A stretch of DNA of 64,000 bases, taken from a virus. Below, piece by piece: positions 1,219 through 60,568 of this stretch. A program made the translations under genes and the position numbers. The first letter of the stretch is position 1; each line of letters starts with the position of its first letter. The notes under the pieces were generated by a model. That model saw nothing but the letters and a program-made list of their open reading frames with translations, searched no databases and was not told where the DNA came from. The stretch is taken from IMG/VR virus record IMGVR_UViG_3300045988_174698; one strand, given 5' to 3'.

Positions 1219-1689
1219 TTAATTCTGTTTAATATCTTCCTTTGGATTGATTACTGTTGCAGCAATATTAGCATAACAATCTGCAAGTTCATTAAATTTA
1301 TTATTATTGTGGCCTTTTAATCAAAAGAACTTTACTTTATGAAAGTGTAATAGATTAACTATTTTAACTCATAGATCCATATTCTTCTTTGAATTATCTT
1401 GCTCTGCAATTCATCTATATACATGACCATTGTTAATACTACTAACAATATAACTTGAATCAGAATATATTTCTAAATTCCTAGGTTCCTTAAAATATTC
1501 TAAGGAGTATAGAACTCCCATTAATTCTGCTCTATTGTTAGTAGTATGTATATAACCTTGATATAAAATCTTAATTACTTTGTTGTCCTCAGTAATTATA
1601 GAGGCATAACCCCCTTGGTCTGTTGTTGGTTTGTAACTTCCATCAGTATAGATTCTAATCATCAATAATTTCAGCATCGTCAAACTCAA
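1219..1689 (-). CDS. rnhA: ribonuclease HI, with three in-frame TGA codons read as Trp
   Basis: Track ORF 1411..1689 has DGS...GGY...TNNRAEL (RNase H motifs) and ends at TGA. Reading through TGA continues to TAA at 1219 and recovers the conserved C-terminus FFW(TGA)LKGHNNNKFNELADCYANIAA (W-V/L-K-G-H...NE.AD.LA of RNase HI). Confidence 0.7.
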
Positions 1690-1812
1690 TAACTCTTATA
1701 GTTCCCTTAAAGGCAGCCTCTCTAGAAACTAGAAAGTTATTAAAATCTTCTATAAATGCATCTTTGTTTTTATCTTCTATACTAATATAACCATTAAAAA
1801 TGATGTCAACCA

Positions 1813-2193
1813 TTACTCAACAAAATAATTGGAATTAAAAAGCTTAGGATTATGTCTTTTTAAAAGTTTCTTCTCCTTTTCTATCATAATACTCATGACT
1901 TCATCAGCATAGTCATTTCTACGACCTCCAAAGTTTTCAATAACATGAAACGGATTCTCTAAAGCATTACGCTCAGCAATCTTTCGACCAATAGCTTTAT
2001 TAAAGTTATCTACAGGCTGACATACTGCAAGTCCAAACTTAATAGTATGACTATTATCATCATAAACTGCAGCTATAGTATACCTACGACATGGTTTAAC
2101 ATCATAAACAACAGTTTTCTCAATAATAGGATTCACAGAAACAGTGCCTTGATATACAGGAGCACTGTAATAATACTTAACTACTCTACTCAT
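1813..2193 (-). CDS. hypothetical protein
   Basis: 126-aa ORF from track. Confidence 0.5.
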   Translation of the reverse strand: MSRVVKYYYSAPVYQGTVSVNPIIEKTVVYDVKPCRRYTIAAVYDDNSHTIKFGLAVCQPVDNFNKAIGRKIAERNALENPFHVIENFGGRRNDYADEVMSIMIEKEKKLLKRHNPKLFNSNYFVE

Positions 2194-2230
2194 ATCTTTC
2201 TTATTTTTTTATGATTTACATTTTAAATTG

Positions 2231-2479
2231 TTACTTCCTAGAAAGCTTACACCTCCATTTTTCTAGATTTTTACCAAATCTAGCATCAAATATATAATCA
2301 CAGTAACTATAATCATTAACTATTGTTCTAGGATTAGGAATATTACAATCAAAGTCTTTATCTTGAAGTTTAAAAAAATTACTTTTTAAGTAATTCTTTA
2401 TTCTTCTTTTAACAATTCGATGATAAATATTCTTTATACCTTTATCCTTGTAAACTGGAACCTTATAACTCTTTGACAT
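2231..2479 (-). CDS. hypothetical small basic protein
   Basis: 82-aa ORF, Lys/Arg rich. Confidence 0.4.
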   Translation of the reverse strand: MSKSYKVPVYKDKGIKNIYHRIVKRRIKNYLKSNFFKLQDKDFDCNIPNPRTIVNDYSYCDYIFDARFGKNLEKWRCKLSRK

Positions 2480-2501
2480 ATTAAGATAATATTAAATATA
2501 A

Positions 2502-3050
2502 TTAAGTTACTATATTTTTCATAAATGATATTCTAGCAATGTTTCGTAAATCACTAGATAATACTTTAACAACTATATCTTGTCGGCCATTTCTTTGATA
2601 ATAAGTATATAAAGACCTAGACTTATCTATACTCTTATTTGTTACCTTAGAATCAATTAGTTTAATTATGTCAGTTCGTCTACATACAATTCAATCTTTC
2701 TCTCCTTCAAATGCTATATAATCAGCCTTTCCAAATAGTCATCCAGGATTTCCTCGAACATTTTTTAGTTCTACTCAGTTGATATTATAATCTGGAGTAT
2801 TATCAGCTCTACGATTTTTTTTTGCGCTCTTGATGTCAAATGTAAAAGTTCTATTATTATATGTTCATATAATATCAATATGATCATACATATCTTGATA
2901 CTTAGATGGAATCTGAACAGTTCCTCCAACCTGAGATAGTAACAATTCAGAAAACTCAGATTCTTTTATCTTTCCTAATTTAGAGCAATCTATATATTTA
3001 TTCATAATTGTGACCCCATTTTTCAGCTTCTTCAAATGTACTAAAAACAA
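2502..3050 (-). CDS. hypothetical Trp-rich protein, TGA-recoded
   Basis: Track ORF 2865..3050 terminates at TGA. The frame continues through about 7 TGA codons to TAA at 2502..2504 (about 182 aa; ...SRKSWMTIWKGWLYSIW... uses both TGG and TGA). Confidence 0.45.
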
Positions 3051-3261
3051 GATATTCTGGAATCATTGTTACTATATCTTCAAAAGCATAAAATATATGA
3101 GGACCAGAATCTAAATATGAGACTATAATATCCTTAACTGTTCTAGGAGTAGTATCTACAGTATAAGTATCTACAAAAACTCCTGCTTCAAATTGATGGG
3201 TCTTTTGACAAATAAATACTGTCTGCCCAATATCAAATTTGGTTTCTATACTAATTTTCAT
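2998..3261 (-). CDS. hypothetical protein
   Basis: 87-aa ORF, TAA stop; start overlaps the downstream gene. Confidence 0.45.
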   Translation of the reverse strand: MKISIETKFDIGQTVFICQKTHQFEAGVFVDTYTVDTTPRTVKDIIVSYLDSGPHIFYAFEDIVTMIPEYLVFSTFEEAEKWGHNYE

Positions 3262-3262
3262 T

Positions 3263-3871
3263 TTAGTTATCTATTATTTCAATATATCTCTGTTTAGGAG
3301 TAGTAACGTAAGGATTTTGATCTATAATAATAACTTCTATAACAGTATGTTTTCTAGTAAACCATCGTGGTAGAAACCATTTTCGTGGTTTAATAGGTTC
3401 TTTATGAGAACTTAGAGTTATATACTTTTCATTATTATACTCATTACTTAAAGCTATTGTTCCTGGATAGGAAAGGTGTAGACAACTTCTGTTTCATTTA
3501 TCTACAATACAAGTATCTAACACAAACCCAGGTTCTCTAAATATTGTATCTCTAATAACAATAGTATCTTTCTTAGAAAAATGTTCTAATTGATATTGTA
3601 ACGCTTTAATTTTATTATCCTTAACTTTGTTCTCATTAGCTACTTTTTTCATTTTAAGCATTAAAGAATCGCTAAAGTATTCTAATTGCTCAATTGAAAG
3701 CTTAAATACACGATTACTTTCTTTTAATCATGAATTTTCCGCAGCATATGCTTTTTCATTATTTATAGAATTATCTAACGCAATATTCAGATTTCTAATT
3801 TTATTGGTCATAAAAATTATAGCCAATACAAGTAAAGTATAACTTAATATTCTTAAAATTATTTTTTTCAT
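3263..3871 (-). CDS. hypothetical membrane-anchored protein, TGA-recoded
   Basis: ATG at 3871 overlaps the TAA of the upstream gene (TAATG). N-terminal hydrophobic helix MKKIILRILSYTLLVLAIIF. Two in-frame TGA. TAA at 3263. About 202 aa. Plus-strand ORF 3627..3842 is its shadow. Confidence 0.5.
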
Positions 3872-4224
3872 TATATTAATTCTCTGTTAAAAGTTGAAAC
3901 TACAAAACTTCGGAATAGAATTAAATCTTCTAGAGCATTATCTAACGATGCTACTTGTTTTTTAACTCTTAAATATTTTTCAGTAATAATTTGTATAATA
4001 TTTTTAATATCTCTAATAGAACAAGGATCGTATTCAAACATACATAATCTTCTATTTAAAACACCAATAGGCTCATTTGTTAAAATTATAGGAATTCTCT
4101 TGTTAGATTGAATTTTTATAACAAAAGGAATAGATCCAAGGTCTACTAATAATTTTAGATATCTTATATCTACATTATTTGGAAATATAAATCCTGCCTG
4201 TTTAAGATTTCTAGTAATTAACAT
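3871..4224 (-). CDS. hypothetical protein
   Basis: 117-aa ORF from track. Confidence 0.5.
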   Translation of the reverse strand: MLITRNLKQAGFIFPNNVDIRYLKLLVDLGSIPFVIKIQSNKRIPIILTNEPIGVLNRRLCMFEYDPCSIRDIKNIIQIITEKYLRVKKQVASLDNALEDLILFRSFVVSTFNRELI

Positions 4225-4267
4225 AGTATTAAAAAATAAGGCATTAGAAAACTAATGCCTTAATATT

Positions 4268-4837
4268 TTATTGTTTATTAACAGTGTATCCATGATGTTC
4301 TAAAACTAGTTTACATAAGTTTAAGTACTCTTCTACAGTTAAATCACTTTTAGAATAATTAGCTGCAGGAGTTGTAATACCTAAATTTGATAAATCATTC
4401 GACCCGCCTTTAGAAACTGGTATTATATGATCAAAACAATAATCATCTTTTTCTAAATCAATAGGAGTGCCTGTTAAATAGCACTTTGTTTTTGTGCCAA
4501 ATTTATTAATAATATCTAAAGTCTTAATTTTATTTAAACTCTTCATTCCTCTATTTTGAAAATGTTCAATATATCTCCTTAAACGTTTACGTCATGTTCT
4601 ATTAGAGATTCTTCTACATCCATGAGAGATTCTAGCACAAAAAGTACATAGTCTAGATTTAATTCTCCCCTTAAGTGTATTACGTCATAATGAAGTAGAT
4701 TTTCGTTGTTTACTATTAGTTATATCATTACAATAATATCCAACAATACTTTTGCTACATCCAAGTATCTTAGCAATTTCATTATAACTTTTATTATCAC
4801 TTCTTAAAATAAGAATTTGTTCCTTTAACTTACTCAT
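4268..4837 (-). CDS. HNH homing-endonuclease-like protein with N-terminal HTH, TGA-recoded
   Basis: ATG at 4837; two in-frame TGA (W); TAA at 4268 (189 aa). N-terminus SYNEIAKILGCSKSIVGYY is an HTH. C-terminus CYLTGTPID...DHIIPVSKGGSNDLSNL is an HNH motif. Lies immediately 3' of the intron-containing tRNA. Confidence 0.65.
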
Positions 4838-4851
4838 AATCAACTTATTAG

Positions 4852-5289
4852 CACGAGCTCTCCGATTCGAACAGAGACCGTAGGGTTTGGAGCCCTACAA
4901 TACGGTTTTGCTTACCACTATAGTTTTCACTACCAGTTTTACTGTTTGTAGTCTGGACTATATCAGCTTGATATACAAGTGTGGCATTTAGTCTCTACAC
5001 ATTTATAGAGTAAAGTAGGATACATAGAGAAGTGTACGGCTTTAATTTTCGACCTACTAAGCACTCCGCCTATTTTACACGGCATAAACAGCCTATGTTC
5101 TCTACTGTATTTTACTCTAATTTAGCTCGGTATTATCAGCTATCCATATTTCAGGACCTTAGACTTTCTTAGAAAGCTGATTCGCATGATTTTTATCATC
5201 TTATTTCGCTTTTACCGAATTTGCCACAATTTTCACGCCAAGCGTGCTCCAATTCGAAGACCGCTGTGCTACCATTACACTAAGCTCGC
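4852..5289 (-). tRNA. tRNA gene interrupted by a group I intron; spliced product predicted about 92 nt with anticodon UCA (opal-reading, Trp-type candidate) and a long extra arm
   Basis: 5' exon 5257..5289: GCGAGCT-TA-GTGT-AATGGTA-GCAC-A-GCGGT-CTT. 3' exon 4852..4910: CAAA-ACCGT-[ATTGTAGGGCTCCAAACCCTACGGT]-CTCTG-TTCGAAT-CGGAG-AGCTCGT-G. The only junction satisfying group I rules (5' exon ends in U, intron ends in G) gives anticodon loop CUUCAAA. Anticodon stem GCGGU/ACCGU is formed exon-to-exon. Alternative reading of the extra arm as a CCA anticodon arm is noted in findings. Confidence 0.55.
4911..5256 (-). mobile_element. group I intron (ORF-less, about 346 nt) inside tRNA gene at anticodon position 34/35
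   Basis: Minus-strand core elements: R-like GTGTAGAGACTAAATG (plus 4985..5000) and S-like GATATAGTCCAGAC (plus 4951..4964) in the correct order, pairing GACTA/TAGTC (P7). No ORF in either orientation. Flanked by tRNA halves. Confidence 0.6.
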
Positions 5290-5358
5290 ATTTATTATCT
5301 TTAGTTATACAGCAAAGATAACAAAAATCTGTGAACAATCAAAAATTTAATTAACAAA

Positions 5359-21887: not shown

Positions 21888-21907
21888 AAGTTAAAAAGAT
21901 TTTTGTG

Positions 21908-21950
21908 TGGCTGATGAGAATTGAACTCATGTCCATTCAACTATTAATAA
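21908..21950 (-). pseudogene. orphan tRNA 3' fragment (T arm plus acceptor 3' strand)
   Basis: Minus-strand ATGAG-TTCAATT-CTCAT-CAGCCAC-A. No complementary 5' acceptor (GTGGYTG) within 700 nt upstream. Confidence 0.35.
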
Positions 21951-22643
21951 TAATTTTATTTACATGCTAGGTTATTTTATTCTCCTATTCCGAAAAATAA
22001 CAAAACGTATCAGATAGTTTTTATCTTATCTCCTACAACTTATCTGAAATAACTCGGTTCTATAATAGTAGTTAGTAATGATTAACTTACATCATCTGCA
22101 TTAATCTATACAGAAAATCTTTGTCTATTATTTCTCCAGACTTGGATAGCTTAAGCTGCAAAAGCTACTTGAGCACGCATAGGAGTTGCAAGAGGCATAA
22201 CCTTGTTAGCCATCTTACGTACAGTGTTCTTAGCGTTTATTTTTTGGTCCAGTTGTTAAAGAAGTTATACCAGCTCCTGCATGAATTGTTATCAACTATC
22301 TTGAATGTCAAAAACCTGGCAGGCCCAAAGACAGGGCAGTTTATACTTATACCCTAGAAGTGGTCCATAATAGCTAAAGTGTTTAATGCTCTAATTATAT
22401 AGCAGCGACTAGTATACTGTTATACTTTTCTTGTAACTTCAAGAACTATTACTAAAACTTCAATGTGAAGTTCCTAAAAGCCACTTGAGTATTTTTTGGG
22501 TTCACTCAAGAATACCGTGTTTTATTGTCGGGATCAAACAACCAAACTACCACCTTTCTATATACAAAGGCAAACTCATACTATCTGGCGTAACCCGTTA
22601 CTATTATTTATATACCGCTAAGTAACCTAATGCGGTTTACTTT

Positions 22644-34709: not shown

Positions 34710-34734
34710 GTAAAATAAATTTGTCTAATTGACA

Positions 34735-34857
34735 GGATTCGAACCTGCAGATGTTTTGATTAACACCACATATTGTTTCAATACAGCCAAATTAGTTTTC
34801 ATTTGACGAAGGGATATTAGTCCCTAGCGTATACCAATTCCGCCACAATTAAACAAA
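34735..34857 (-). other. aberrant tRNA-like locus (about 123 nt): tRNA ends with about 55 extra nt between anticodon-like arm and T arm
   Basis: 5' TTAATTG-TG-GCGG..., anticodon-like arm AGGGA-CTAATA-TCCCT (6-nt loop), then about 55 nt, then GCAGG-TTCGAAT-CCTGT and acceptor CAATTAG. No clean cloverleaf. Confidence 0.3.
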
Positions 34858-34989
34858 CTTATCTTTAACTTTAAAATGAAGGAGTGGGTGACTGTCACTC
34901 TAACAGTTACTAATACTAGTATAATGGCCTAGCAGCTCAGTGCCACAGTCTTCCGACACATTAGTAATGTATTTTTACTTCATCTTGCA

Positions 34990-35100
34990 GGTGTAACGGG
35001 ATTCGAACCAGACATACGATTCCCTCAAGAGTTCTCTCTTAGCGTATCTCCGAAGTTGCCACCTCGGTGTTTTACCATTAAACTATACACCTAAAACAAG
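34990..35100 (-). other. aberrant tRNA-like locus (about 110 nt) with about 40-nt nested-hairpin insertion in the variable region
   Basis: Acceptor AGGTGTA/TACACCT, D arm GTTT-AATGGTA-AAAC, hairpin CCGAGG-TGGCAA-CTTCGG, extra stem AGATACG...CGTATGTCT enclosing AAGAG-AGAA-CTCTT, weak T stem around TTCGAAT. Confidence 0.3.
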
Positions 35101-44050: not shown

Positions 44051-46303
44051 ATGGATATAACCTACAAACCGTATATTAGAGATTCTTCATTTAAAGAATT
44101 ATCTATTAAAAGTCCTACTATTAATATTAAAGGATACAAACCTAAATATACTATTAAACAAGATAAAGAGGAGACAATTACTCCAGTAGAGTCTCCAATA
44201 GAAGAGATACAAATGCATAAGAAACCTAAGATTAAAGAGGCAACTGCAAAAGCCATAAGATTTGAATCTAAAGAGGAGTTTAAGGATACTATGATTCCAA
44301 TATATGAGTCTCTCTTAGTTAAGAGGGGTTTAAATCCAGTATTTGCCAAAGCTTTAGTAGCTCAGGATGGATTAGAGTCTGCTTGAGGGTCTAAACCATC
44401 TGGAAATTTTAATTTTGGGGGGATTAAAGGTAAAGGGGCTATTAAAAGAACTAGAGAGGTTATTAATGGTAAAGATGTCTATATAAATGATAGTTTTAGA
44501 GATTTTAATTCTCTAGAAGACTATGCTAATTTTAAGATTGACCTACTTAATAGTAATCGTTATAATGCTTTCTCAGGGAATATTTCAGAGTTTGCAGATA
44601 GGGTTCAAAAAGGAGGATATGCCACAGATCCAAACTATTCTAGGACTTTAAACAAGGTAATTGCTACTGCTAAGTATGGTGGTACTCTTAAACTTCAACT
44701 AGGAGGTGTTGTTCAAGGCAAACAATGAGTTAAAAATTGATATAAAAATCGTACATTTCAGATAAAAAGAAATATACAACAACATCAATTAATACCTATA
44801 CCAGTTACAGGTGCCTTAGGGTATAATATTCTTGCGCATAATATAGATCTTACTACTGCCTCCATAGATCCTTCTAGAGTTCCTACGGATTCTAAAGGTG
44901 TATATTCCTATGGAGGTCGTAAAATATATCTAAGAGATGACTCTCCTTCTACTGCTGTTCATGAATGAGTGCATAGTAGCAGGCCTGATCCTCAAGTTAA
45001 AGAGATAGCTAGAATTAAGAATTTACTAGGGGATGCTTTTTATGACCAAAACTCAGTTATACCTGATGATTATCTAGATGATCCACAAGAGATATATGCA
45101 AGATTAATGCAGTTTAGGTATGCCTTAGGAGTAGATCCGAATCATAAGTTCACTAATGAAGAAATTGAAGACCTTAAAAAGAAGCATGTAAAACAAATAA
45201 CTCTAACAAATAGACTTAAAGGGAAAGATCATAATAGTTTTTCTACTACGGTGTTTGATAATGAAGGTAATGTTATCAGTACAGAGCCTTATCAACCTGA
45301 GTATAAGTATATTCCAGAAGAATCTACTGTTCATAGAGAATATGATACAAATAATACTTTTCAGTTCTTAGATAGATATAGTACTGATAGTATTCGTAGG
45401 ATGTTAAATGATGTTGCACAAGTTCCTAATAAAAAGAAAAATTCTACTTTATATATAAAATTAGGATTAAAGATACCTAAATATCAACATTCTGGAGTTT
45501 TAAGAAATGCTTATAATGACCCAGAACATTATTATGATTATTCTAAAGGATCATATGATCCTGATACAGAACATTGATCAGGTAGAGATCCTGTAACTGG
45601 AATGGAATTAAAAAATCCAAACCATCCTACTGCATTTATGCACCATGAAGTAGAACAACAATTAGGGAATAAAAGATATCAAGATAGTAATGGTAGATAC
45701 TATACATTTCCAAATGGTGAAGCTCCGATCTGAAGAAACGTATATGGCCCACTTTCTGAGACTCCAGGACTCAAAGAGGTAAAATATCCGAGTTATGGAA
45801 AAGGAAAAGCCAGTGTGGAAGAAGCTATAAAAGACAATCTCCCAAGAGTACAATGAATTTGAGATCAATTAATTAGTGCAGGAGCATCTAAAGAGCAAGC
45901 AGCTGCTATATTGGGAAATTTCTGAAAAGAAAATCAAATTCAACCTTACGGTAAACCTTCAAGTAAAGGTGCTATGGGGCTTGCGCAACTTAAAGAAGGC
46001 AGATACGATAGATATATAGAATTTTTAAATAAAAATAAATTAATAGATAGTACTGAGTCTCAAATAAAATATTTGTTACCTATTATTTTTACAGATGAAG
46101 TAAATCCTCATAATTTAGATAATTATAACTCTTTTTGAAATGATTGAACAAAATCACAAAGAGAGGCTTTTAGAACTGCGAAAGGTCTAGATGATCTTAC
46201 AGTATCGTTTGCAGATAACTTTGAAAGAATGGGTAAAAAGGAAGCAGATTATGAGACTCGTATAAATGCCGCGAGATATATTTACAACTTAATGGTAAAA
46301 TAA
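44051..46303 (+). CDS. multidomain peptidoglycan hydrolase (N-terminal glucosaminidase, central HExxH zincin-like segment, C-terminal lysozyme/transglycosylase-like segment); about 750 codons, 9 in-frame TGA
   Basis: Track fragments 44051..44386 and 44969..45577 are in one frame with no TAA/TAG from 44051 to TAA 46301..46303. TGA codons fall at conserved Trp positions: DGLESAW(TGA)G...FGGIKG...GYATDPNY (glucosaminidase), AVHEW(TGA)VH, AAILGNFW(TGA)KENQIQPYGKPSSKGAMGLAQL. Confidence 0.6.
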
Positions 46304-46330
46304 TTATAAATAAATTTAATAAATACATAT

Positions 46331-46579
46331 ATGTTTGCATTAAGAAAAATTACAAATGACGGTTTAGAAATGAATTTTAGTTTAGGAGACTCTTATACTT
46401 TAGTTATAAAAGAACGTTCTCCGAAAGAATTTGAAGATAAGATGAAAGATCATCCTTTTTATGATAAAACTTATGCTTTTATTTATTGAAAAGATGAGAT
46501 ATTACCGTTATATAAAAATCAAAAAAACTATATTGTTTCTGAAAATGGGACAACTTATAGTAACTTAACATATAAATAA
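46331..46579 (+). CDS. hypothetical small protein (one TGA)
   Basis: ATG 46331, TAA 46577..46579, 82 aa. Confidence 0.4.
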
Positions 46580-46580
46580 T

Positions 46581-46772
46581 ATGACAACAATGACTTGGAA
46601 AACAAAATTAATTATTGCCACAATCGTAATTGCTTTAGTATTAGCAGGTTGTGGCATTGTGTCAGCTATGAGCTTTGGAAGTTTGTTGCTTGCATTAGTA
46701 AGTTTAGCAGTAGGAGCGGGTTGTGGTTGGTATGCTAAGCATATCTATGATAAATATTTTAAAGGTAAGTAA
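46581..46772 (+). CDS. holin-like two-TM small protein
   Basis: 63 aa, two hydrophobic helices and charged C-terminus (KHIYDKYFKGK). Adjacent to the hydrolase. Confidence 0.45.
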   Translation: MTTMTWKTKLIIATIVIALVLAGCGIVSAMSFGSLLLALVSLAVGAGCGWYAKHIYDKYFKGK

Positions 46773-46775
46773 TAA

Positions 46776-47825
46776 ATGAATACAATATTTTTTGGGCAGA
46801 ATGTTCCTATACAATCAGCAACAAAGGTTAAAATATATTATATCAATAAAACTAAACTTCCTATTAAAGTCAGTATTCGTTGAAGAGATAGAGATGTTCT
46901 AAATTATACTACTGAAACTTTAAATCTACTAGCTGCGGGAATAGTTGAACAAACAGTAGCATTAAAAGAATTTGAATCAACCTCTGGAAAGGGTCTAGTA
47001 GTTGAGCCAATAACGAATGCAATTATCCAGTCTAGTACAACCTATCCTAATTTATTTATTAAAGCTACAGTAAAAGAGGTAGCAACAGGAGATACTATAG
47101 GGACATTTAACAAGGGAGGAACTATTAGTCCTATAATGGCTACAAAAGAGTATCAAGCAACTGTTACTTTTGAATATAATTCTGGAATTTATATCAATAG
47201 TACTGCTGCTAGTTATGTTCCTTCTGTTACCAGCAATCGCCCTACAATAACTGTATTTAGTGATGCTGATTCATATGGTATTACTGGAATATTTACACAA
47301 GACACAGCAGTAACTTATGCTGATATAGAAGGAGATGGTTATACTCATTATATTAAAGTAAATAACTGTAAGAATATTGCATTAGATAGATATATTAGTG
47401 GAACTAATTCTGGATCTAACTCTAGTATTAGTTATTCAGATTTATATCCAACGGATATAGGAACAATAGATATCGGCAAAACTTTATTTTTATGAGTAAA
47501 ATCATTTACATATGAAAAAGAATCTACTCCTACTCCTGATCCTTCAATTAGTTGTGATGTTTATGTATGTAGTCGCAATAATTTAAATAACACAGAATGT
47601 AGTATAGATATATATGAGGGGTATGGAACAACAGGAGTTCGTTTAGCCAATCTATCACTGGCCCCTGGGGAAGGAAATTGAGTTTCATATCAAGGTGGAT
47701 ATAGAACATTCAGTTCCATACGTTTAAATTCGATTTTAAAGGGAACCCAGATAACTATCGCATTAAATGGGTCTCAAGTAAGTGATTGAGTAAATGAAAC
47801 AACTAAATATGTTTGAATTAATTAA
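46776..47825 (+). CDS. hypothetical Ser/Thr/Asn-rich protein (possible virion or lysis accessory), 4 in-frame TGA
   Basis: ATG 46776; track fragment 47136..47495 in the same frame; no TAA/TAG until 47823..47825 (349 aa). Confidence 0.5.
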
Positions 47826-47866
47826 AAATAAAAAGGGAGCTACTTAGCTCCCTTTTTATTTTCATA
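47826..47866 (+). terminator. rho-independent terminator
   Basis: AAAAAGGGAGCTA-CTT-AGCTCCCTTTTTATTTTC immediately after the stop of 46776..47825. Confidence 0.6.
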
Positions 47867-48004
47867 TTGTTTTGCGCTTATAATAAAGCATACTAGACTT
47901 AGTAATATATATATAGGTTGCAGTACTTTAGTACTTGTTATAAAAAATATTCCCATAAATATCAATCCTATAACATATCAAAATTTATACATTTCCAAAT
48001 TTTT

Positions 48005-48040
48005 TTAAAAAATCTCATAATGTGAGATTTGAATTTTTTA
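48005..48040 (-). terminator. rho-independent terminator (minus strand; palindromic, may act both ways)
   Basis: AAATCTCA-CATTA-TGAGATTT hairpin flanked by A/T runs, downstream of minus-strand gene 48067..48453. Convergent with the plus-strand terminator. Confidence 0.45.
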
Positions 48041-48066
48041 TTGCATTTTGTTTTAAAGCATCCATA

Positions 48067-48453
48067 CTATCTTTTAGGTACACCTCCAAGTTTATCAGCT
48101 CATCTCTCTGAGAAAAACGAGTAATAAGATCTTTTAGACTTTGGGGTATGGACAGCTGCTCAAATAATACTAGGCAGTCCTATAATTAGTAAATAGAGGG
48201 GGCCTAAATATAAAGATTGTCGAGTATGTCCTCATTCATGTTCTTTTGTGTAATTTCTGTTATATTTCCAACTTGATTCTCCCATTAAGATATATAATCC
48301 TAATGAAATACCTCCAGGAAAGTCTCCCGCATAAATTGGAATTTCCCTAAAAGTTTCTTTGTACTCTACATTATAGCACCAAGTTAAAATAAGACCGAGA
48401 AGACACTGTGGAAATTCCCATATCCATCTCAGTATTTTAATATACCATTTCAT
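48067..48453 (-). CDS. hydrophobic protein with HEWGH motif, TGA-recoded
   Basis: Track ORF 48232..48453 ends at TGA; read-through (4 TGA) to TAG at 48067 gives 128 aa including ...TKEHEW(TGA)GHTRQ... and hydrophobic stretches. Confidence 0.4.
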
Positions 48454-48468
48454 ATAATATTTAATTTA

Positions 48469-48948
48469 TTATTTATAGTAAATTTGTTTAAATTGTTTTC
48501 AAAGTGAGTATTGAGCATCTATTGCTTCTTGTTCTCAAGGTCTTAACATATAATCCAATGAAGAATCAAACTGCTGTCCCTTTCATAAGAATACTAGTTT
48601 AGAGTCTTTTTTCACAAGTTCAAGATCTCTCCTTTCGTATTGATCAAAATGTTGCATTTCATGACATATAATAGTACTAAGACTATCAGATAACTTAGTT
48701 TTTAATAATAGATTATATGTATGAGGCACTGGTGTTTTATCTAATAGAGCTTGTAGTTCACATTCCTCAGTTGAAAATTTATTTAAGATTTTATCATTAT
48801 ATTGTACTAAGATATTTGCATTAGTATAGTCAAATATTTTAGTTCCTATGACTTTAATTAATTCCTCCACATCATATTGTTTTGGAGATTCAATTAATGA
48901 GGTTACTTTAAATGTCTCAGGGAACTCTAATTTAGATCTTTCCTTCAT
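48469..48948 (-). CDS. hypothetical protein with HEMQH zinc-motif, TGA-recoded
   Basis: Track ORF 48583..48948 ends at TGA; read-through (3 TGA) to TAA at 48469, about 159 aa. Confidence 0.4.
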
Positions 48949-48979
48949 ATTATTTAAAAACTAGTTATTATAACCTCTA

Positions 48980-49417
48980 TTAAACTCGTAGTTCTCCATA
49001 TTGGTTTCTCATTCTTGGAGATATTCCTAAATGTACCCATGTAGTAGACCCACTTTTTTCAATAAAGCATTGATCTATAATGACTTTATTTCTAGTAAAA
49101 TAATCTTTAATAAAGTTAAAGAAGTTTTCTACTCCTTTAACAGAAGTATCTTCAGGTTGTAAATCTACTGCTTCATAGTATTGATGAGAGCTATTACTTA
49201 CGCCCCCCACAGCTTTATTAAGGCTTGGCGATCTATATCCAGAAGTAATAGTAATAGCAGAGCCTCATGCTTCTCTTAATGGATCTAAATATTCTATAGC
49301 TAGTTTACTTAGTTTTTCTATTCCCTCTCATGTAGGTAGATTTTCTATTTTTTTACTAATAGCTGTATCACTTCTTAAAAGTTCACTTAATTCAAAATAT
49401 TTAGGGGTATTTATCAT
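48980..49417 (-). CDS. peptidase M15-family (VanY / L-Ala-D-Glu peptidase-like) cell-wall hydrolase, two in-frame TGA
   Basis: ATG 49417; the frame passes two TGA (LPTW, REAW) into track ORF 48980..49210. Contains ITITSGYRSP and SNSSHQYYEAVDLQ (SGxRS...S.H..G.AVD of the M15 family). Confidence 0.6.
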
Positions 49418-49518
49418 AATTTAATCTATAATATATAATTTACCAAATTTCTCTAAAATCATATAAATATTTATTTGCGCTTTGATTTTCTTCCATGTCG
49501 TCATTTTTATACACCTCC

Positions 49519-49797
49519 TTACTTCTTATTTCATTTACGGCTATTGGCAGCAAATGTTGCTCGTTTTCTAATTGCTGGATCGGGGGATCTTTTGCCTTTA
49601 GCTATACACTCACTAGTTACTTTCCCACCACAATATTCTGTAAACTTACCTCTATTTTTCTTTTTAATATGAATCTTAGAACCTTTTTTCATCATTTCTA
49701 TGTACCCACTTGTAATATTATCTAGTCCGAGATTGTTATGATACTCTGTACTATATACCTCTACAATTTTGTTTAAAATGTCATTGTTATATTTCAT
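49519..49797 (-). CDS. hypothetical basic small protein
   Basis: Track ORF 49531..49797 ends at TGA; four more codons to TAA at 49519. Confidence 0.35.
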
Positions 49798-49917
49798 ACT
49801 TTATAAAATAATTAATAGGATTATTATCTAGTAATATATGTTTTTGCAAAAATAATTATTTATTTAGATATTTGCAAGTATTTGGATAAATTATTTGGAT
49901 ATCAGAAAGATTTATTA

Positions 49918-49925
49918 TATATTTG
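49918..49925 (+). promoter_or_regulatory. Bacteroidota-type -7 promoter element (TATATTTG)
   Basis: 41 nt upstream of ATG 49966. Confidence 0.3.
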
Positions 49926-49965
49926 CATCATTCAAGTAAAATTATAAAGAGTTATATATATAAAT

Positions 49966-50658
49966 ATGGCAAAAACAAAACCTGATATAGATTCTGGACT
50001 TTCATGACTAGAAAGAATCCTACAATTATGTAAAGAGTATGGAGTATTTAATATTTTGAAGGGGTTATTTATTCTAATTATGTTAAGTTTAACACTTAGG
50101 ATTTGTTACAATCCTAGTTTTTTATTTGACAAATATACTGACTACATGACTCAAAGACATGCGAAAGAGTTACATAAAAGGACAGAATATGATCAACAAA
50201 TAAAAAGTCTCCTGCCTGTATATTTATATAAATATCATGCAGATAGGATATGAATTATTCAGTACCATAATGGTATTATGGACTGACAACATGGAACTAT
50301 GAGATTTGAATTATGTAATGATGAAGTTGAATCAATTAAAAATCAATATAATGATTTTAATCTAACCTGGATTAATCTTCCTTATTATTTAAAGACGAAC
50401 GAAGTATTTATAGGGGATATGGTTAAATTAGATAGTATTGATTCAACTCTTTATACACAACTCAAAAAAAATAATGTACAATATTTAGCCTGTACAATTA
50501 TAAAAGATAATAGTGGTTATCCAATTGGTATTTTAGGAGTGACTTGGAAAAATATTCCACCAAATATTGATAGATTACAAAATAAAATACATAACTATCT
50601 TATAGATGATAGAGCAGATATTAAAACTCTTATCCAATCTAATTATAATAAAGAATAA
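49966..50658 (+). CDS. hypothetical protein (230 aa), in-frame TGA codons
   Basis: ATG 49966; track fragments 50056..50253 and 50299..50658 share its frame; no TAA/TAG until 50656..50658. Confidence 0.5.
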
Positions 50659-50667
50659 AAGTATAAT

Positions 50668-51606
50668 ATGCCTAAACTTAGAGGGAGTAAATTAAAATAT
50701 GTTAATGGGTATGCAGTAGATAAAGAAAATGATAATATTATATACTCTGATGAAAAGCATATTTATATGGATAAGACCGATAATTCGAAATATGAATCTG
50801 TAACGACAATAATAGGACAGTACTGTCAAAAATTTGATTCAGACTTTTGGTCATCATATAAAGCTTGTGAGGCGTTATTAGACCCCACAGTGTTTTACCC
50901 ATTAAAATCAAAACTTCTTTCTTCTAAAAAATGAAAGGAGTCTTATATTGAAGAATATGGATTAGATCCTGTTGAATTTCTAAATAAGAAATCTGAAATC
51001 CTACAAAGTTATGAAGATAAGAGGAATGCTAGTACGGAACGTGGTACTAAAATTCATGCTATGATGGAAGATCTATTTTATCAAGGGGATAAAAAGGCAA
51101 TAAGCAAATATGCAGGAGGAGGAACTTTTGAGGTAAAGAAGGGATATTATAAACTAGATATTGACAGGGCAATTTATCCTGAGTTTCTTATAAGTTATGA
51201 ATTTGACGAATACTTAAAGATTGCTGGTCAAATAGATTATTTACAGATAAGTGATAATGAGATAGTTTTGTTAGATTGAAAGACTAACGGTAAGATTGAT
51301 AAAGAGTCTTATTTTGATAGAACTACTAAGAAAAGACAGATGATGCTCTCACCATTAGAAAATATTATGGATTGTAATCTATGTCACTATCAGTTACAAC
51401 TTAGTATGTACGCATATCTTCTTCAGAAGATTAATCCTAAATTCAAAATAAAAAAGCTAGCAATTGTTCATTTTGATCACGACGGTAATGAAACTGAATA
51501 TGAAGTAAAATATTTAAAAGATGATATTGCCAGACTTCTTTTATATCATAGGAAGAAGAATAAAATAAAAGCAGAACTTGATAGAGACAAACCAATAGTA
51601 TTTTAA
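50668..51606 (+). CDS. PD-(D/E)xK nuclease (YqaJ / lambda-exonuclease / Cas4-like fold), two in-frame TGA
   Basis: One frame from ATG 50668 through track fragments 51061..51279 and 51340..51606 (312 aa). Motifs TKIHAMMED ... GQIDYLQISDNEIVLLDW(TGA)KTNGKI (D...E.K core with the Trp at the recoded codon). Confidence 0.55.
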
Positions 51607-51612
51607 AATATA

Positions 51613-51852
51613 ATGATTATGGAAAATGTAGATGATTTATATGAAAATAGAATGAAGATTTGCAAAGAATGTCCTCTATATCTAGATAGTCCTATGGGAG
51701 CTAGATGTAATTCTAGGCTATATTTATCCGAAGCTGATAAAAAGACAGTAAGTGATAGACCCAAATTAGGATATAAAAGAGGTTGTAACTGCATGTTACA
51801 GAGAAAATTACGTATGCCCGCTGCAAAATGTGTTGTAGGGAAATGATAAGAT
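51613..51852 (+). CDS. zinc-ribbon small protein
   Basis: Track ORF plus one terminal TGA codon then TAA; CKECP...C..C...CNC cysteine pairs. Confidence 0.4.
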
Positions 51853-51854
51853 TT

Positions 51855-52073
51855 ATGAGAAAAATATTACATACAATTAAAAATATTATAATAGGGTGAT
51901 ATCGTAGATTCTTTAAACCTATCCCTGATTGAGCTGAAAGAAGATATAAGGTATGTTTAAACTGTCCTCATAAAGAAAAATTATTTGGAGAATACTGATG
52001 TACTTTATGTGGATGTAATTGCTATAGTAAATCATTAGTAGAAGATGAACAATGTTATGATAATAGATGATAA
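51855..52073 (+). CDS. zinc-ribbon small protein, TGA-recoded
   Basis: ATG 51855, 4 TGA, TAA 52071..52073; CLNCPH...CTLCGCNC. Confidence 0.35.
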
Positions 52074-52100
52074 TGTATAATTTTAAAATAATAATGAATT

Positions 52101-52625
52101 ATGAGTAAAGAAAAGTATCTAGGAACTGATTACTATCAGTTAACAGGAAAACATTTAATGGGCAATAATATTAAACGTGAAATTGATCCTGAAGCACTTA
52201 AAAGGGCACAAGAAAAATCAGAAAGAGATCAAATGGAGTATGTAGCTAATTTAATGGCAAAAGATAAAGATTGCAAACCATATGAGAATAAGAAAATTGT
52301 TCCTACGGCAGGTAGAGTAGTTGTATTACCTTACGAAAAGAATCCTTATCGTTTACCATTACATGAAACCACCTCTGGACTTATCTTAGGTGATTTTGAA
52401 ACATCTGCAACATATAAATCACAGGAAACTGGAGAACAAGAAGCCTCACAGCGTGGTATTTGGTGTTGTAAAGTTATTGCTGTTGGTAATGAATGTAAAA
52501 GTGTATTAGAAGGGGAAGATGTATATATTAATTTTACATTAGCTGCGCCACTCCCCTTTGGTGGAAAAGGATACTATACAATCAGTGAAAATAATATTAT
52601 TTGTAGTATAAGAGATAATGAATAA
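52101..52625 (+). CDS. hypothetical protein
   Basis: 174-aa ORF with standard TAA stop and no TGA. Confidence 0.5.
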   Translation: MSKEKYLGTDYYQLTGKHLMGNNIKREIDPEALKRAQEKSERDQMEYVANLMAKDKDCKPYENKKIVPTAGRVVVLPYEKNPYRLPLHETTSGLILGDFETSATYKSQETGEQEASQRGIWCCKVIAVGNECKSVLEGEDVYINFTLAAPLPFGGKGYYTISENNIICSIRDNE

Positions 52626-52653
52626 GATGCACTAAAGGTGAATATAAAAAGTT

Positions 52654-52905
52654 ATGGATATGAATGAAAATTTGAATAAAGAAGGTAACTCATACCTATT
52701 TTACACCCCTGGTCAGCTTGTAACCTTAAAACATAAGGAGCTAAATTCTCCAATAATGCTTATTCAAGAGAAAGTTACAAGGCAGTTTAAACAGGGAGAT
52801 CAGATGTATAATATCTTCAAGGGTATGAAATGTATTTGATTTGATAAAAATAATGTGCTGCAAGAAGCAGTATTTTCAACAAAAGATTTGGAATTATATA
52901 AATAA
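52654..52905 (+). CDS. hypothetical small protein (one TGA)
   Basis: Track ORF 52654..52839 extended through TGA to TAA 52903..52905 (83 aa). Confidence 0.4.
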
Positions 52906-52913
52906 ACAATCAT

Positions 52914-53138
52914 ATGACTTTACAAATTGATGGATTTATAGTTACAGGGACGCCTGATGAGGTAAATACTTTTATTAAACTGTATCAGGTAAAACAATAT
53001 ACCATTGTTAATTCCCAACAACCAATTATACCATTATATTATTCCCCTGATACTGATATTAAAAAGTGAGAGATAACTTGTAAAGATAGTAGTAATATTA
53101 GTAGTAATATTAATGGTAGTGTAGTTAAACCAGAATAA
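52914..53138 (+). CDS. hypothetical small protein (one TGA)
   Basis: ATG 52914, TAA 53136..53138, 74 aa. Confidence 0.35.
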
Positions 53139-53140
53139 GT

Positions 53141-54001
53141 ATGAATAAAGAAGACTTAACTCAGTTTATAGAGTGACTCCCAGTTAATATTAATGAGTTT
53201 AAAGATAAAACTCCTGATGAAGTAGTCACTATTCTAAATAAATTAGCCCAAACAGAAGAGGGGTTAAATGAAATATCTGGTCTTATTAGTCAATTTAAAC
53301 AAAAACAGATGTTTAAATTTGGGGGTAAATTAGGGCAACTTATTAATAAATTTCAACAAGGAGGAAAATCTGATCAGAGAAAATCTGATAAAGTAAGAAA
53401 AAATTTTCATGGAGTTAGTTTATTTGAATATGGTCCTAATAAATATAAAACTGCAAGAGGCACTTTAGTTAGAGATTTAAAACCAGGAGTTCATCAAGAA
53501 ACTCTTCCTAATGGTATAGGTCTAAGACAGATTACTAGAAATAATACTACAACATCAGAATTAGTATCTCCAGATAAAAGGGATACATTATATATTAATA
53601 ATGCAGATGCTGGAAGAATTGACAGTAATATTAATGATGCTGGTATATTAGGTAAATTAGGATTACGGACACCAACCCCTGTAAGTTCTAATTTTAGAAG
53701 ATTACAAGGTATTTTTAATGCCAAAAAATTTAATACAGGAGGAGAGGTAACTAAAGATGGATACAAGTCTAGTTCTGTAACAAATCCTGATGGTTCTATA
53801 AAACAAACTTTAAGATATCCTTCTGGGAAAGAAGAATATAGAACTATAAGTAGAGACAAACAAGATACTATATATACTAATAGTGTCAATGGTATTACTA
53901 GAAGAAATAATCCTAAATGATACCACTTTGTTGACAAAGAAGCTAATAAAAAAGGCTATGCAGAAAGACAAAGACGATTTAATGAACATTACAAAGAATA
54001 A
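53141..54001 (+). CDS. hypothetical virion-module protein (286 aa), two in-frame TGA
   Basis: ATG 53141; track fragment 53309..53920 in the same frame; TAA 53999..54001. Confidence 0.5.
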
Positions 54002-54585
54002 TGACAGATATATTCCTTTATAATAATACTACAGGATCTCTTGAACTTAATGTTCATGAGATCCTACTTGTAAAGGAGTTTGAGGCATTATGAGACTTAG
54101 ATAGAAATAAATGTAGTGAAGATCCTACAGGTAAAAAGAGACTACGAGCATGAAAAGAATTTAAATATATTTGATTATTTGCTGATTGGAAGAGTCCATA
54201 TCAACAATATTTAGAGATGGAAAAACACAAAGCAGCTATGGAAGATTCAGGACTATCTGATGAAGAATGAAATGATCCCACTTTTAGAGCTGCCGTTAGA
54301 AAATATATTGAAATTAAAGATTCTTCTCGTATTCTAAGTCTTATAAAAACTGCCTTCAGAACTCTTGAAAAGATGAGAGTATCATTAGACAATATTGACC
54401 TTGAAGAAAGAGATCCTGTAAATAACAAACCAATCTGAAAAGCTAAAGATATTCTTGATAGTATTGGTTCTATCGGCACTATGACTGATAAGTTAAAGGA
54501 ACTAGAACTAAACTATAAGAAAGATCAAATTGAAAGTAGTTCTAAAGTTAGAGGTGGTTTGGAGCGAGGATTTATGGATGAGTAA
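54001..54585 (+). CDS. hypothetical protein, possible terminase small subunit by position; 6 in-frame TGA
   Basis: ATG 54001 overlaps the previous TAA. Codon-by-codon read shows no TAA/TAG until 54583..54585 (194 aa). Immediately precedes the TerL gene. Confidence 0.4.
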
Positions 54586-54591
54586 TGAACT

Positions 54592-56910: not shown

Positions 56911-57199
56911 AGAAAGTAATCTTGAGTGTAGAGTTAGAGAACTAATTAACCAAGTTACACAGTCTAAGTATATTTCTCCTATTGATGTTAAGTATGAAGA
57001 TGGGATATATACATTAAGACTTGGATTAAATTGTAAAGATGCAGCTCCAATATCTTTTGGGTATCAAGGTAGTGAAGAAGGATTTTTAAAATTTTTAGAA
57101 AAAGAATTTAGAAAGAGAAAACTTCAAAATATTAATTATACTACAGGAGTACTTATAAATGGAGATAGTAATTTGCATTTTCCAATAATAGAGTTATAA
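56876..57199 (+). CDS. hypothetical small protein
   Basis: 107-aa standard ORF overlapping the TerL 3' end by 35 nt in another frame. Confidence 0.35.
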   Translation: MGKNDMELYLRKESNLECRVRELINQVTQSKYISPIDVKYEDGIYTLRLGLNCKDAAPISFGYQGSEEGFLKFLEKEFRKRKLQNINYTTGVLINGDSNLHFPIIEL

Positions 57200-57201
57200 A
57201 A

Positions 57202-59768: not shown

Positions 59769-60568
59769 TGAGTAACTTAAATGTTCGTTTAATAGTTTAT
59801 CCAAATTGCAAATTGTCTGCTATTGATGATAGTAGTTATACTAATCTGCCAGGTAGATATGGGACATTATTTGAAAATATAGCGGATTATGTCTCTTTAG
59901 AGTTTCTAGTATATTCTAATACAAATGAAATTGAACCCAATACTTTAATTTTTGAAAACTATCAACATAACAGAGATAATTTTTTAACAGATAGTATTTT
60001 TCCAATTATAAAAGATGGAGTTCATCATTATTATAAAATAGTTATTCCCAAACTAGAAACTCTATTTATCAAAGATACTCCTTCAGAAGATTTATACTCT
60101 TTAATATATTTAAAAGATCAGACATTCTACTATAACAATAATTTTTATGTTGCAAAACAGAATTATGAAACTGCTCCTACTTCTAAAGAGGAACTATTAA
60201 ATAAAATTGATCTTATTTTAAAAGAATCTGAAGCAGAAATTGTAACTAATTATATTGATCTTTATAAACTGTGTGGCAGTCAATCTTTTTGCTGCAAAAA
60301 AACAGTATTTACAATTTGCAAATTAACACAATGTTTACTAAATTTACAACGCCAAATTATAGATCATGCTATTTATAATAAGTGTGCTGATTATAAAGAT
60401 ATTATAGAAAAAAGAGACTTTATTCTAAGTACAATTTATGTTCTAGATTATTTAAAGGATATTAATAATTTTCAGGAAGCACAACGTATTGTAGAAAATG
60501 TTCTGGGATGTAATGATATTTGTAATACAGATAATACATTAAATAACAATTGCGGGTGTAATGGATAA
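59768..60568 (+). CDS. hypothetical protein with Cys-rich C-terminus
   Basis: 266-aa standard ORF (TAA stop, no TGA); ATG overlaps the previous TAA. Confidence 0.5.
   Translation: MSNLNVRLIVYPNCKLSAIDDSSYTNLPGRYGTLFENIADYVSLEFLVYSNTNEIEPNTLIFENYQHNRDNFLTDSIFPIIKDGVHHYYKIVIPKLETLFIKDTPSEDLYSLIYLKDQTFYYNNNFYVAKQNYETAPTSKEELLNKIDLILKESEAEIVTNYIDLYKLCGSQSFCCKKTVFTICKLTQCLLNLQRQIIDHAIYNKCADYKDIIEKRDFILSTIYVLDYLKDINNFQEAQRIVENVLGCNDICNTDNTLNNNCGCNG

Follow-up and report, generated by a model that had tools for sequence, protein, structure and literature searches.

A TGA-recoded HTH-HNH gene next to an intron-split opal-suppressor tRNA in a Zeta crAss-like phage: probably a free-standing homing-endonuclease-like gene linked to the tRNA

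The stretch of viral DNA analysed here, 64,000 nucleotides of IMG/VR record IMGVR_UViG_3300045988_174698 (hereafter the window), belongs to a Zeta crAss-like phage. On the minus strand, at positions 4268..4837, it carries a gene for an endonuclease with an N-terminal helix-turn-helix (HTH) and a C-terminal HNH domain, directly 3' of an opal-suppressor tRNA(UCA) gene that is split by a group I intron. We think it probable, from comparison of related loci, that this is a tRNA-associated, free-standing homing-endonuclease-like gene whose linkage is to the suppressor tRNA and not to the intron. Its clean presence or absence among relatives, its repeated decay and the transfer of an 805-bp cassette that includes part of it all point in this direction. 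An earlier note on this DNA had described the arrangement, and its observation is confirmed; its interpretation is supported in part. The locus is organized as follows, with ORF standing for open reading frame:

5295..5321, minus strand: hairpin around the promoter-like element, with arms TTATCTTT (5321..5314) and AAAGATAA (5302..5295), recognized in the sequence
5320..5313, minus strand: promoter-like element TATCTTTG, within the small hairpin, some 25 nt before the 5' end of the tRNA
5289..5257, minus strand: 5' exon of the opal-suppressor tRNA(UCA), with GCGGTCTT at its end and U34 as its last base, from the sequence and the cloverleaf
5256..4911, minus strand: ORF-less group I intron of 346 nt between anticodon positions U34 and C35, ending in GGTAAG, from a weak Rfam match and from relatives
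4910..4852, minus strand: 3' exon of the tRNA(UCA), with a long variable arm, U72, discriminator G73 at 4852 and no encoded CCA, from the cloverleaf and ARAGORN
4268..4837, minus strand: HTH-HNH endonuclease gene, 189 codons plus TAA, starting 14 nt past the tRNA
4742..4822, minus strand: N-terminal HTH (residues 6-32) of the GerE/LuxR or sigma-70 region 4 type, from Pfam matches below cut-off, AlphaFold2 and Foldseek
4687..4685, minus strand: in-frame TGA at codon 51 (Trp), from the sequence and the allele alignment
4594..4592, minus strand: in-frame TGA at codon 82 (Trp), where all relatives have Trp or TGA, in the motif D-W-N-K
4337..4483, minus strand: HNH (beta-beta-alpha-metal) nuclease core, residues 119-167, from Pfam HNH_4, a 54-sequence alignment and Foldseek
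4262..4237, minus strand: intrinsic-terminator-like hairpin of 11 bp with a T-run, following the HNH stop codon

The gene runs from an ATG at 4837 to a TAA at 4270..4268. Between the discriminator G (4852) and the ATG there are 14 nt, one fewer than the earlier note had counted; its coordinates for the gene and its placing of it directly 3' of the tRNA on the same strand are right. Since the start codon lies after the 3' exon, a location of the HNH gene inside the intron is ruled out.

As a fixed point for comparing related loci we took the conserved downstream gene for a 202-aa protein (window 3263..3871), which is independent of both HNH gene and intron. Of the 50 IMG/VR loci with this anchor, 49 could be scored for the HNH gene, the intron and intron-borne endonucleases, and all have tRNA(UCA) at this place. 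All four states were found:

intron present, HNH present: 7 of 49 anchor loci
intron present, HNH absent: 26 of 49 anchor loci
intron absent, HNH present: 12 of 49 anchor loci
intron absent, HNH absent: 4 of 49 anchor loci

The corresponding odds ratio of 0.09 (49 loci, counts uncorrected for shared ancestry) indicates free assortment or, if anything, a negative association, and seven loci added by a metagenome scan were all in line with the earlier ones. The HNH gene is present in 19 of the 49 loci and absent from 30, which keep the tRNA. Intact copies lie 15-20 nt downstream of an intronless tRNA(UCA) in L007/L008 and in twelve IMG/VR contigs, and intact copies beside intronless tRNA(UCA) belong to several clades. 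The ORF-less intron class of the window, in turn, occurs without any HNH gene in nine contigs (L029, L030, L032, L034, L035, L038, L039, L042 and L072), of which one, L034, has a promoter, tRNA and intron of the window type, 97% identical to those of the window. The distribution among these loci establishes that the HNH gene comes and goes independently of the intron, and joint inheritance of the two, as in a collaborative homing pair, was not seen across relatives (7/26/12/4). The earlier note had read the arrangement as that of a free-standing homing endonuclease mobilizing its neighbouring intron. The gene is indeed an HTH-HNH gene of the free-standing type, but the four states do not tie it to the intron. 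The proposed mobilization finds no support in the odds ratio, in the intact HNH genes beside intronless tRNA(UCA) or in the relatives' introns, which have endonucleases of their own; independence of gene and intron is the outcome that the note itself had named as refuting.

Mobility of the intron is explained separately, judging from gene content, by the PD-(D/E)XK and LAGLIDADG genes of related introns at the same site. In relatives, the site between U34 and C35 is occupied by introns that contain a PD-(D/E)XK gene (Pfam PDDEXK_5, 4.5e-15; PDB 2ost, E 8e-4), copies of which are intact, fragmented or reduced to remnants (L003 5070-5671, L009 6511-7114, L023-L028, L045-L071). An additional LAGLIDADG_2 gene, seen only once, resides in the intron of L019 (4631-5873, 1243 nt). 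The entry 2ost is I-Ssp6803I, the PD-(D/E)XK homing endonuclease of a cyanobacterial tRNA-fMet intron. As in that system, the relatives' endonuclease lies inside an intron at an anticodon-loop site and offers a separate route to intron mobility; unlike it, the window is without such an endonuclease, and the parallel concerns the intron and not the HNH gene. The ORF-containing introns of L003 and L009 escaped detection by Rfam at E <= 1; their status as introns follows from the shared insertion site, 3' terminal homology and omega-G. Only the last 50-65 nt of the window intron can be aligned with the ORF-containing introns, and its origin as a simple deletion derivative of the PD-(D/E)XK introns is not shown. 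As the earlier note had stated, the window intron has no internal ORF: nothing in it resembles the PD-(D/E)XK or LAGLIDADG genes of relatives even at E <= 10.

Presence or absence of the HNH gene takes the form of a clean indel of about 600 bp right after the tRNA, with clean boundaries to the downstream flank. In L038, which lacks the gene, GCTAACTAATTGATAATCTGTATATT is joined to ATGCAACATAGTCC; in L007, which has it, GCTAAAAAATATAATTT is followed by the HNH gene, CA and the same ATGCAACATAGTCC. In L023 and L024, relatives that have the same backbone as the window but no HNH gene, the same terminator hairpin follows about 20 nt after the tRNA, so that the HNH gene of the window sits between the tRNA and the terminator of the tRNA. 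As expected of a free-standing homing endonuclease gene, it is sporadically present at one fixed intergenic site among syntenic relatives (19/49). Several of its alleles have decayed:

L002: 31 codons deleted between two ATGACGTAA repeats
P0005: 21 aa missing
L205: loss of about 124 codons
L053: truncation
L009: lacks the N-terminus
L156/L157: frameshift of 1 nt

At least six alleles have been damaged independently of one another, while others are intact and under purifying selection, as in a cycle of invasion, degeneration and loss. Transfer is recorded in L001, which is 97% identical to L007 on both sides of the locus except for an 805-bp segment. This segment consists of the tRNA, the intron and the first ~350 nt of the HNH gene. 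It matches the window at ~100% identity, whereas elsewhere the two sequences do not exceed 77%. One junction falls within the shared promoter and the other within the conserved HNH core; this recombinant type is common. Judged by this mosaic, a tRNA-intron-HNH cassette has demonstrably moved between diverged genomes, and the HNH gene lies at the edge of the transferred cassette. The L001 cassette is compatible with homing co-conversion but also with ordinary recombination.

Further evidence comes from the neighbourhood of the gene family. Every HNH subclade of at least 46% identity that was placed in context adjoins tRNA(UCA). There are seven such subclades, on either side of the tRNA:

window/L001/L155: beside the window-type tRNA(UCA)
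L156: beside an intronless variant of tRNA(UCA)
L007/L047/L003: beside a 91-nt 'tRNA-B'
L019 (type also in L009): HNH upstream of the tRNA
L021: beside a standard 75-nt tRNA type
L158: beside another standard 75-nt tRNA type
L162: beside an odd tRNA type that ARAGORN misses

HNH clade and tRNA scaffold move together across different genome backbones, and these contexts reveal a tight linkage of the HNH gene to particular tRNA(UCA) alleles. A tRNA lies within 150 nt of 11 of the 21 full-length IMG/VR homologues, as against 2 of 59 matches that are HNH-only or HTH-only (Fisher p 2e-6). Among 50,697 phage records, the only homologues found by tblastn at E <= 1e-5 belong to Tenacibaculum phage Gundel_1 and Rhodococcus phage Weasels2. 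Both are inside tRNA arrays, touching tRNA-Pro and tRNA-Phe, and in the Weasels2 relatives Grayson and Peregrin the array is shared up to the 3' end of tRNA-Phe with no HNH gene. In these unrelated phages the homologues adjoin ordinary tRNAs and not suppressors. A megablast search of the same records with 3.8 kb around the window locus gave no match.

The encoded protein itself has the features of a nuclease with a DNA-binding domain. With TGA translated as Trp, Pfam HNH_4 matches residues 119-167 (E 6e-6, 26.6 bits, cut-off 22) and Pfam HNH scores 21.6 bits (cut-off 21.4), and the best PHROGs match is phrog_6050 'HNH endonuclease' (E 5e-21). HTH_38, HTH_23 and Sigma70_r4_2 match residues 5-32, all under the Pfam cut-offs. 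The Pfam check of the 189-aa product proposed in the earlier note therefore came out as it had anticipated for the HNH part, with the HTH below cut-off, and together with the PHROG and the two in-frame TGA codons it bears out the description of an HTH-bearing, TGA-recoded HNH gene. A 54-sequence family alignment has nine invariant columns (C119, Y120, G123, D136, H137, G145, N151, N160 and K163), all of which the window protein shares; they include D136, H137, N151, N160 and K163, in keeping with the catalytic His preceded by Asp and the two downstream Asn/His residues, metal-binding or structural, of the HNH superfamily. An AlphaFold2 model was built for P0001, a protein 95% identical to that of the window (predicted local distance difference test score, pLDDT, 87.9). 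It has an N-terminal three-helix HTH (residues 1-30, pLDDT 89-97), a helical linker and a C-terminal beta-beta-alpha module with strands in 116-155 followed by helices. In Foldseek searches the best PDB match of the C-terminal part was the Gme HNH nicking endonuclease 4h9d (E 7e-3, probability 1.0; E-values were modest), with further matches to the HNH domains of Cas9 proteins including NmeCas9, and the N-terminal part matched the DNA-binding domains of GerE, RhlR and SdiA.

A metagenomic protein collection contains 210 homologues at E <= 1e-3, the best 95% identical, and alleles 98% identical to the window gene were found in other samples. Pairwise ratios of nonsynonymous to synonymous substitution rates (dN/dS) between diverged HNH alleles are 0.06-0.38, mostly 0.1-0.2, in both halves of the protein. 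These ratios mark the HNH gene as a conserved protein gene under purifying selection; a chance ORF is ruled out by the 210 homologues and by dN/dS of ~0.1-0.2. We also considered, and rejected, a packaging HNH protein associated with the terminase (HK97 gp74-like), against which stand the N-terminal HTH and the fact that 30 of 49 relatives do without the gene. Upstream, the genes for a 401-aa protein and a GATase-like protein are free of terminase domains according to precomputed Pfam calls for L002, which is nearly identical, and the two downstream neighbours, encoding proteins of 117 and 202 aa, have no Pfam match.

TGA is a sense codon in the window (G+C content 31%). ORFs of at least 100 aa sum to 12,353 aa under translation table 11 and to 18,479 aa under table 4, and window-wide there are 91 TGA as against 114 TGG codons, with a bimodal distribution among genes. 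TGG is almost the only one of the two in the minus-strand genes from 5359 to ~33100; TGA predominates in the plus-strand genes at 44051-60568 and in several genes just downstream of tRNA(UCA) (1219-4837). The HNH gene contains exactly two in-frame TGA codons, and these are both of its Trp codons. TGA and TGG swap at aligned Trp positions of HNH alleles, each of which has 2-4 TGA and 0-1 TGG, and this exchange indicates that TGA means Trp here. In-frame TGA at sites where homologues have Trp or TGG thus goes together with general use of TGA as a sense codon in the genome.

The two exons of the suppressor, when joined, form a clean cloverleaf of 93 nt (minimum free energy -34.1 kcal/mol) that ARAGORN calls as tRNA(tca). 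The program missed the split gene in the window, and at normal thresholds both ARAGORN and the Rfam tRNA model overlook this suppressor because the group I intron interrupts it. The intron itself is a weak match to Rfam Intron_gpI (18.5 bits, E 0.031, cut-off 50), with AGACTAAA and GATATAGTCC aligned to the core. Relatives with the same tRNA and an uninterrupted anticodon loop, giving a precise presence and absence of the intron at this site, are much stronger evidence for it than the Rfam score; in the intronless allele L156, the same 5' exon runs straight into CAAAACCGT. Copies of the window intron, 82-87% identical, are present in L029 and L155. The body of tRNA(UCA) is extremely variable among related phages: it occurs on many scaffolds, with a variable arm that is short in some and long in others and with unusual T arms. 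The CUUCAAA loop, U72 and G73 are constant across the window, L007, L019, L021, L023, L045, L065, L156, L158 and L162. G73 with U72 fits bacterial tRNA-Trp identity.

The sequence TAnnTTTG is the -7 promoter consensus of Bacteroides. This element with its hairpin is present before every tRNA(UCA) allele examined, including those of L001, L002, L007 (5679-5712), L021 (1168-1192) and L156, and the hairpin stem shows compensatory changes between lineages, for example TACTACCTTT/AAAGGTAGTA. In the window the tRNA and the HNH gene are probably under joint control of the TATCTTTG element: co-transcription is probable because the 14-nt spacer has no room for a promoter and the terminator comes after the HNH gene.

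Putting these features together, we propose the following course of events. The HNH gene would be transcribed with the tRNA from the TAnnTTTG promoter, and 3' processing of the tRNA would free it as a short-leader mRNA. Because both Trp codons are TGA, translation would be delayed until the suppressor is ready, that is, spliced and charged. In the protein, the N-terminal GerE-type HTH is predicted to serve DNA recognition and to be connected by the helical linker to the C-terminal beta-beta-alpha-metal nuclease. During co-infection the enzyme may nick or cut the tRNA(UCA) region of relatives that have another allele or no HNH gene, and repair from the HNH-bearing genome would then co-convert the HNH gene and the tRNA, plus the intron if there is one. 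The earlier note had singled out the dependence of the gene on TGA read-through as coupling it to the suppressor; the coupling is real, as both Trp codons are TGA, but it is not special to this gene, given the 91 TGA codons of the window, and is shared by many window genes. Nor is it new. TGA-recoded homing endonucleases have already been described, and the same logic of delay was proposed for a TGA-rich intron endonuclease of Agate phages (Borges et al. preprint, 10.1101/2021.08.26.457843).

The closest analogue is SegB of phage T4, a free-standing GIY-YIG homing endonuclease in the T4 tRNA cluster that recognizes a conserved motif in tRNA genes and drives co-conversion of flanking tRNAs (PMC2330249). 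Both are free-standing nuclease genes among phage tRNA genes and are absent from close relatives that keep the tRNAs. SegB drives preferential inheritance and co-conversion of the flanking tRNAs, which is what we propose for the HNH gene, and processing of a shared transcript in the manner of a tRNA is believed to restrict its expression; such processing is proposed here too. The differences are that SegB belongs to the GIY-YIG superfamily and has a known target, the T-psi-C motif in tRNA genes, and that the cargo of the HNH gene is a stop-codon suppressor on which translation of the nuclease depends. Phage T5 has homing endonuclease genes, F-TflI/II/IV, in its tRNA region (PMC2330249). The window gene is likewise found in a phage tRNA setting and has a nicking HNH enzyme (4h9d) as its best structural match, with no sequence relation to the T5 genes detected in the tblastn search of the 50,697 phage records (E <= 1e-5). 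The T5 enzymes are reportedly HNH-type nicking enzymes as well, a finding ascribed to Akulenko et al. 2004.

Several points weigh against a tRNA-linked homing endonuclease. The whole case for homing is one of comparative genomics, the counts are uncorrected for shared ancestry, and a single IMG/VR study (3300045988) is the source of many contigs. Not all family members have a tRNA nearby: P0053 and L017/L018 do not, and P0053 is flanked by genes for a pyrophosphatase and a methylase. Plain homologous recombination during co-infection could account for the L001 mosaic, if the phages had crossed over in two conserved stretches, the promoter and the HNH core. An HNH enzyme that targets tRNA genes must spare the many tRNA genes of its own genome. 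Finally, a useful, domesticated function would likewise be in keeping with steady purifying selection and with linkage to the suppressor in many lineages.

A narrower version of the earlier interpretation would confine intron homing to the HNH clade of the window. Here the HNH enzyme would cut intronless tRNA(UCA) at or near the insertion site, the ORF-less intron would shield its carrier, and intron and HNH gene would be copied together. Such 'collaborative homing' is known from F-CphI and the psbA intron of cyanophage S-PM2 and from similar T3/T7-like cases (PMC6083498, PMC10055350), and the related trans homing by T4 MobE, a free-standing HNH gene whose action also mobilizes a neighbouring element that no longer has a working endonuclease (MobE / I-TevIII), offers a second precedent (PMC2790892). 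The anatomy agrees with both: as with F-CphI and psbA, an ORF-less group I intron, without an endonuclease of its own, is adjoined by a free-standing endonuclease gene just downstream of the split gene, and as with MobE, the latter is an HNH homing-endonuclease-like gene. The order of domains differs from that of Mob-type proteins, in which the HNH is N-terminal and the DNA-binding modules C-terminal; the window protein has the HTH first and the HNH last.

Within the window clade the association of HNH gene and intron is complete. An intact gene is always beside the ORF-less intron (window, L001, L010-15, L155, L199-202), and the only window-like HNH gene beside intronless tRNA-A (L156/L157, two samples) has a 1-nt deletion in its HNH core. 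The window clade comprises few independent lineages, however, and the full association with its single frameshift may be coincidence. The L001 cassette also fits, as intron and HNH 5' part entered together a backbone otherwise with intronless tRNA, and the 64-kb window contains no other endonuclease like the intron-borne ones. Between the window and L023, whose flanks are 95-96% identical, homology is lost precisely at the 5' splice site and not regained before the anchor gene, as expected if the DNA broke at the insertion site and was co-converted to one side, but such an end of homology is also expected from the fact that the two introns are unrelated in sequence. (The 117-aa gene between HNH and anchor, window 3871..4224 on the minus strand, is far more diverged from its counterpart in L023, ~4130-4500, than these flanks and belongs to the same variable segment as the HNH gene.)

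Outside the clade the pattern fails: the ORF-less intron class is without HNH gene in at least nine contigs, among them L034 with its 97% identical tRNA and intron, and a sister HNH clade is intact beside intronless tRNA(UCA) in 12 loci with the same anticodon loop and much of the stem. In contrast to F-CphI and psbA, HNH gene and intron spread independently, and the HNH gene is common beside intronless alleles. We also scanned IMG/VR for the intronless anticodon stem-loop GCGGTCTTCAAAACCGT and obtained 32 loci (L167-L198), many of which are tRNA(UCA) genes with long variable arms in large phage contigs (100-230 kb). None of the 32 has an HNH gene near the tRNA, and the scan did not separate the models. 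The hints from within the window clade fit equally well the 'HEG turnover' of PMC10055350, in which a free-standing homing endonuclease gene replaces a lost intron-borne one, and the distribution across relatives fits such turnover better than collaborative homing. We regard collaborative homing in the window clade as unlikely.

A domesticated function would see the gene kept by the phage for its own use, either as a late nuclease against competing phages or host DNA or, through its HTH, as a regulator of the suppressor promoter, with dependence on the suppressor ensuring that it is made after the code switch. Values of dN/dS of 0.1-0.2 over long divergence, adjacency to tRNA(UCA) that lasts in seven HNH subclades on either side, Trp codons that are nearly all TGA across alleles (2-4 TGA as against 0-1 TGG) and the conserved promoter with its hairpin upstream are all consistent with this. 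The gene is, however, absent from 30 of 49 syntenic relatives that keep the tRNA, inactivating lesions are frequent in otherwise intact genomes, and homologues in unrelated phages sit beside ordinary tRNAs and not suppressors. Neither the absences nor the lesions fit a needed function, and we hold domestication to be quite improbable. That the copy in the window has died or is dying, a remnant without present activity, as the visible damage to several close alleles and the few differences from the L001 type (for example C74 for G) might suggest, is very improbable indeed in view of its full-length ORF without TAA, TAG or frameshift, its nine invariant residues and the 98% identical alleles in other samples.

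Other features of the genome deserve mention. The glutamine amidotransferase gene next to the locus matches those of crAss-like phage cr108_1 and Cellulophaga phage phi14:2. Two Rfam tRNA hits that ARAGORN did not call (window 34988..35092, minus strand, 105 nt, 34.7 bits; and 34724..34852, minus strand, 129 nt, 32.8 bits) lie inside the tRNA cluster and look like tRNA-like genes that have long insertions after the anticodon arm. A phage-encoded tmRNA gene is present at 21905..22326 on the minus strand (Rfam, 52.3 bits). The gene for a MoxR-type AAA ATPase, intact in L001 (2369-3544, 391 aa), is split in L007/L008 (2251-3174) by a GIY-YIG/NUMOD1 gene with a strong group I intron hit (81 bits).

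A tRNA-linked homing endonuclease would have consequences for stop-codon recoding. The HNH gene and the suppressor tRNA(UCA) might together form a mobile 'code-switch cassette', in which a nuclease family that targets tRNA regions cuts rivals and carries suppressors between diverged crAss-like phages, with an arms race of target-site escape leading to the hypervariable tRNA body around a fixed anticodon loop, U72 and G73. This extension is tentative, and we advance it with considerable doubt. If it were true, nuclease homing would be a route for the spread and upkeep of stop-codon recoding in phage populations. The transfer of the cassette between genomes otherwise at most 77% identical places the genetic-code switch in a hot spot of recombination or homing. 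Intron-split suppressors may also explain suppressors that seem to be missing from recoded phages. The relative OKSC01000019 (L201) is listed as the 175-kb Zeta crAss-like genome zeta_11, annotated as reading TGA as w, with no suppressor in its tRNA list (Yutin et al., PMC7886860), an omission that we attribute to the intron splitting its tRNA(UCA).

More generally, the gene represents an uncharacterized HTH-HNH family for which a preference for tRNA loci of phages is statistically clear. This extends the theme of SegB and the T5 enzymes well beyond coliphages. Its close subclades are tied specifically to the opal-suppressor tRNAs of recoded gut phages, where a nuclease that can be translated only with the help of the tRNA travelling with it would have a simple built-in delay.

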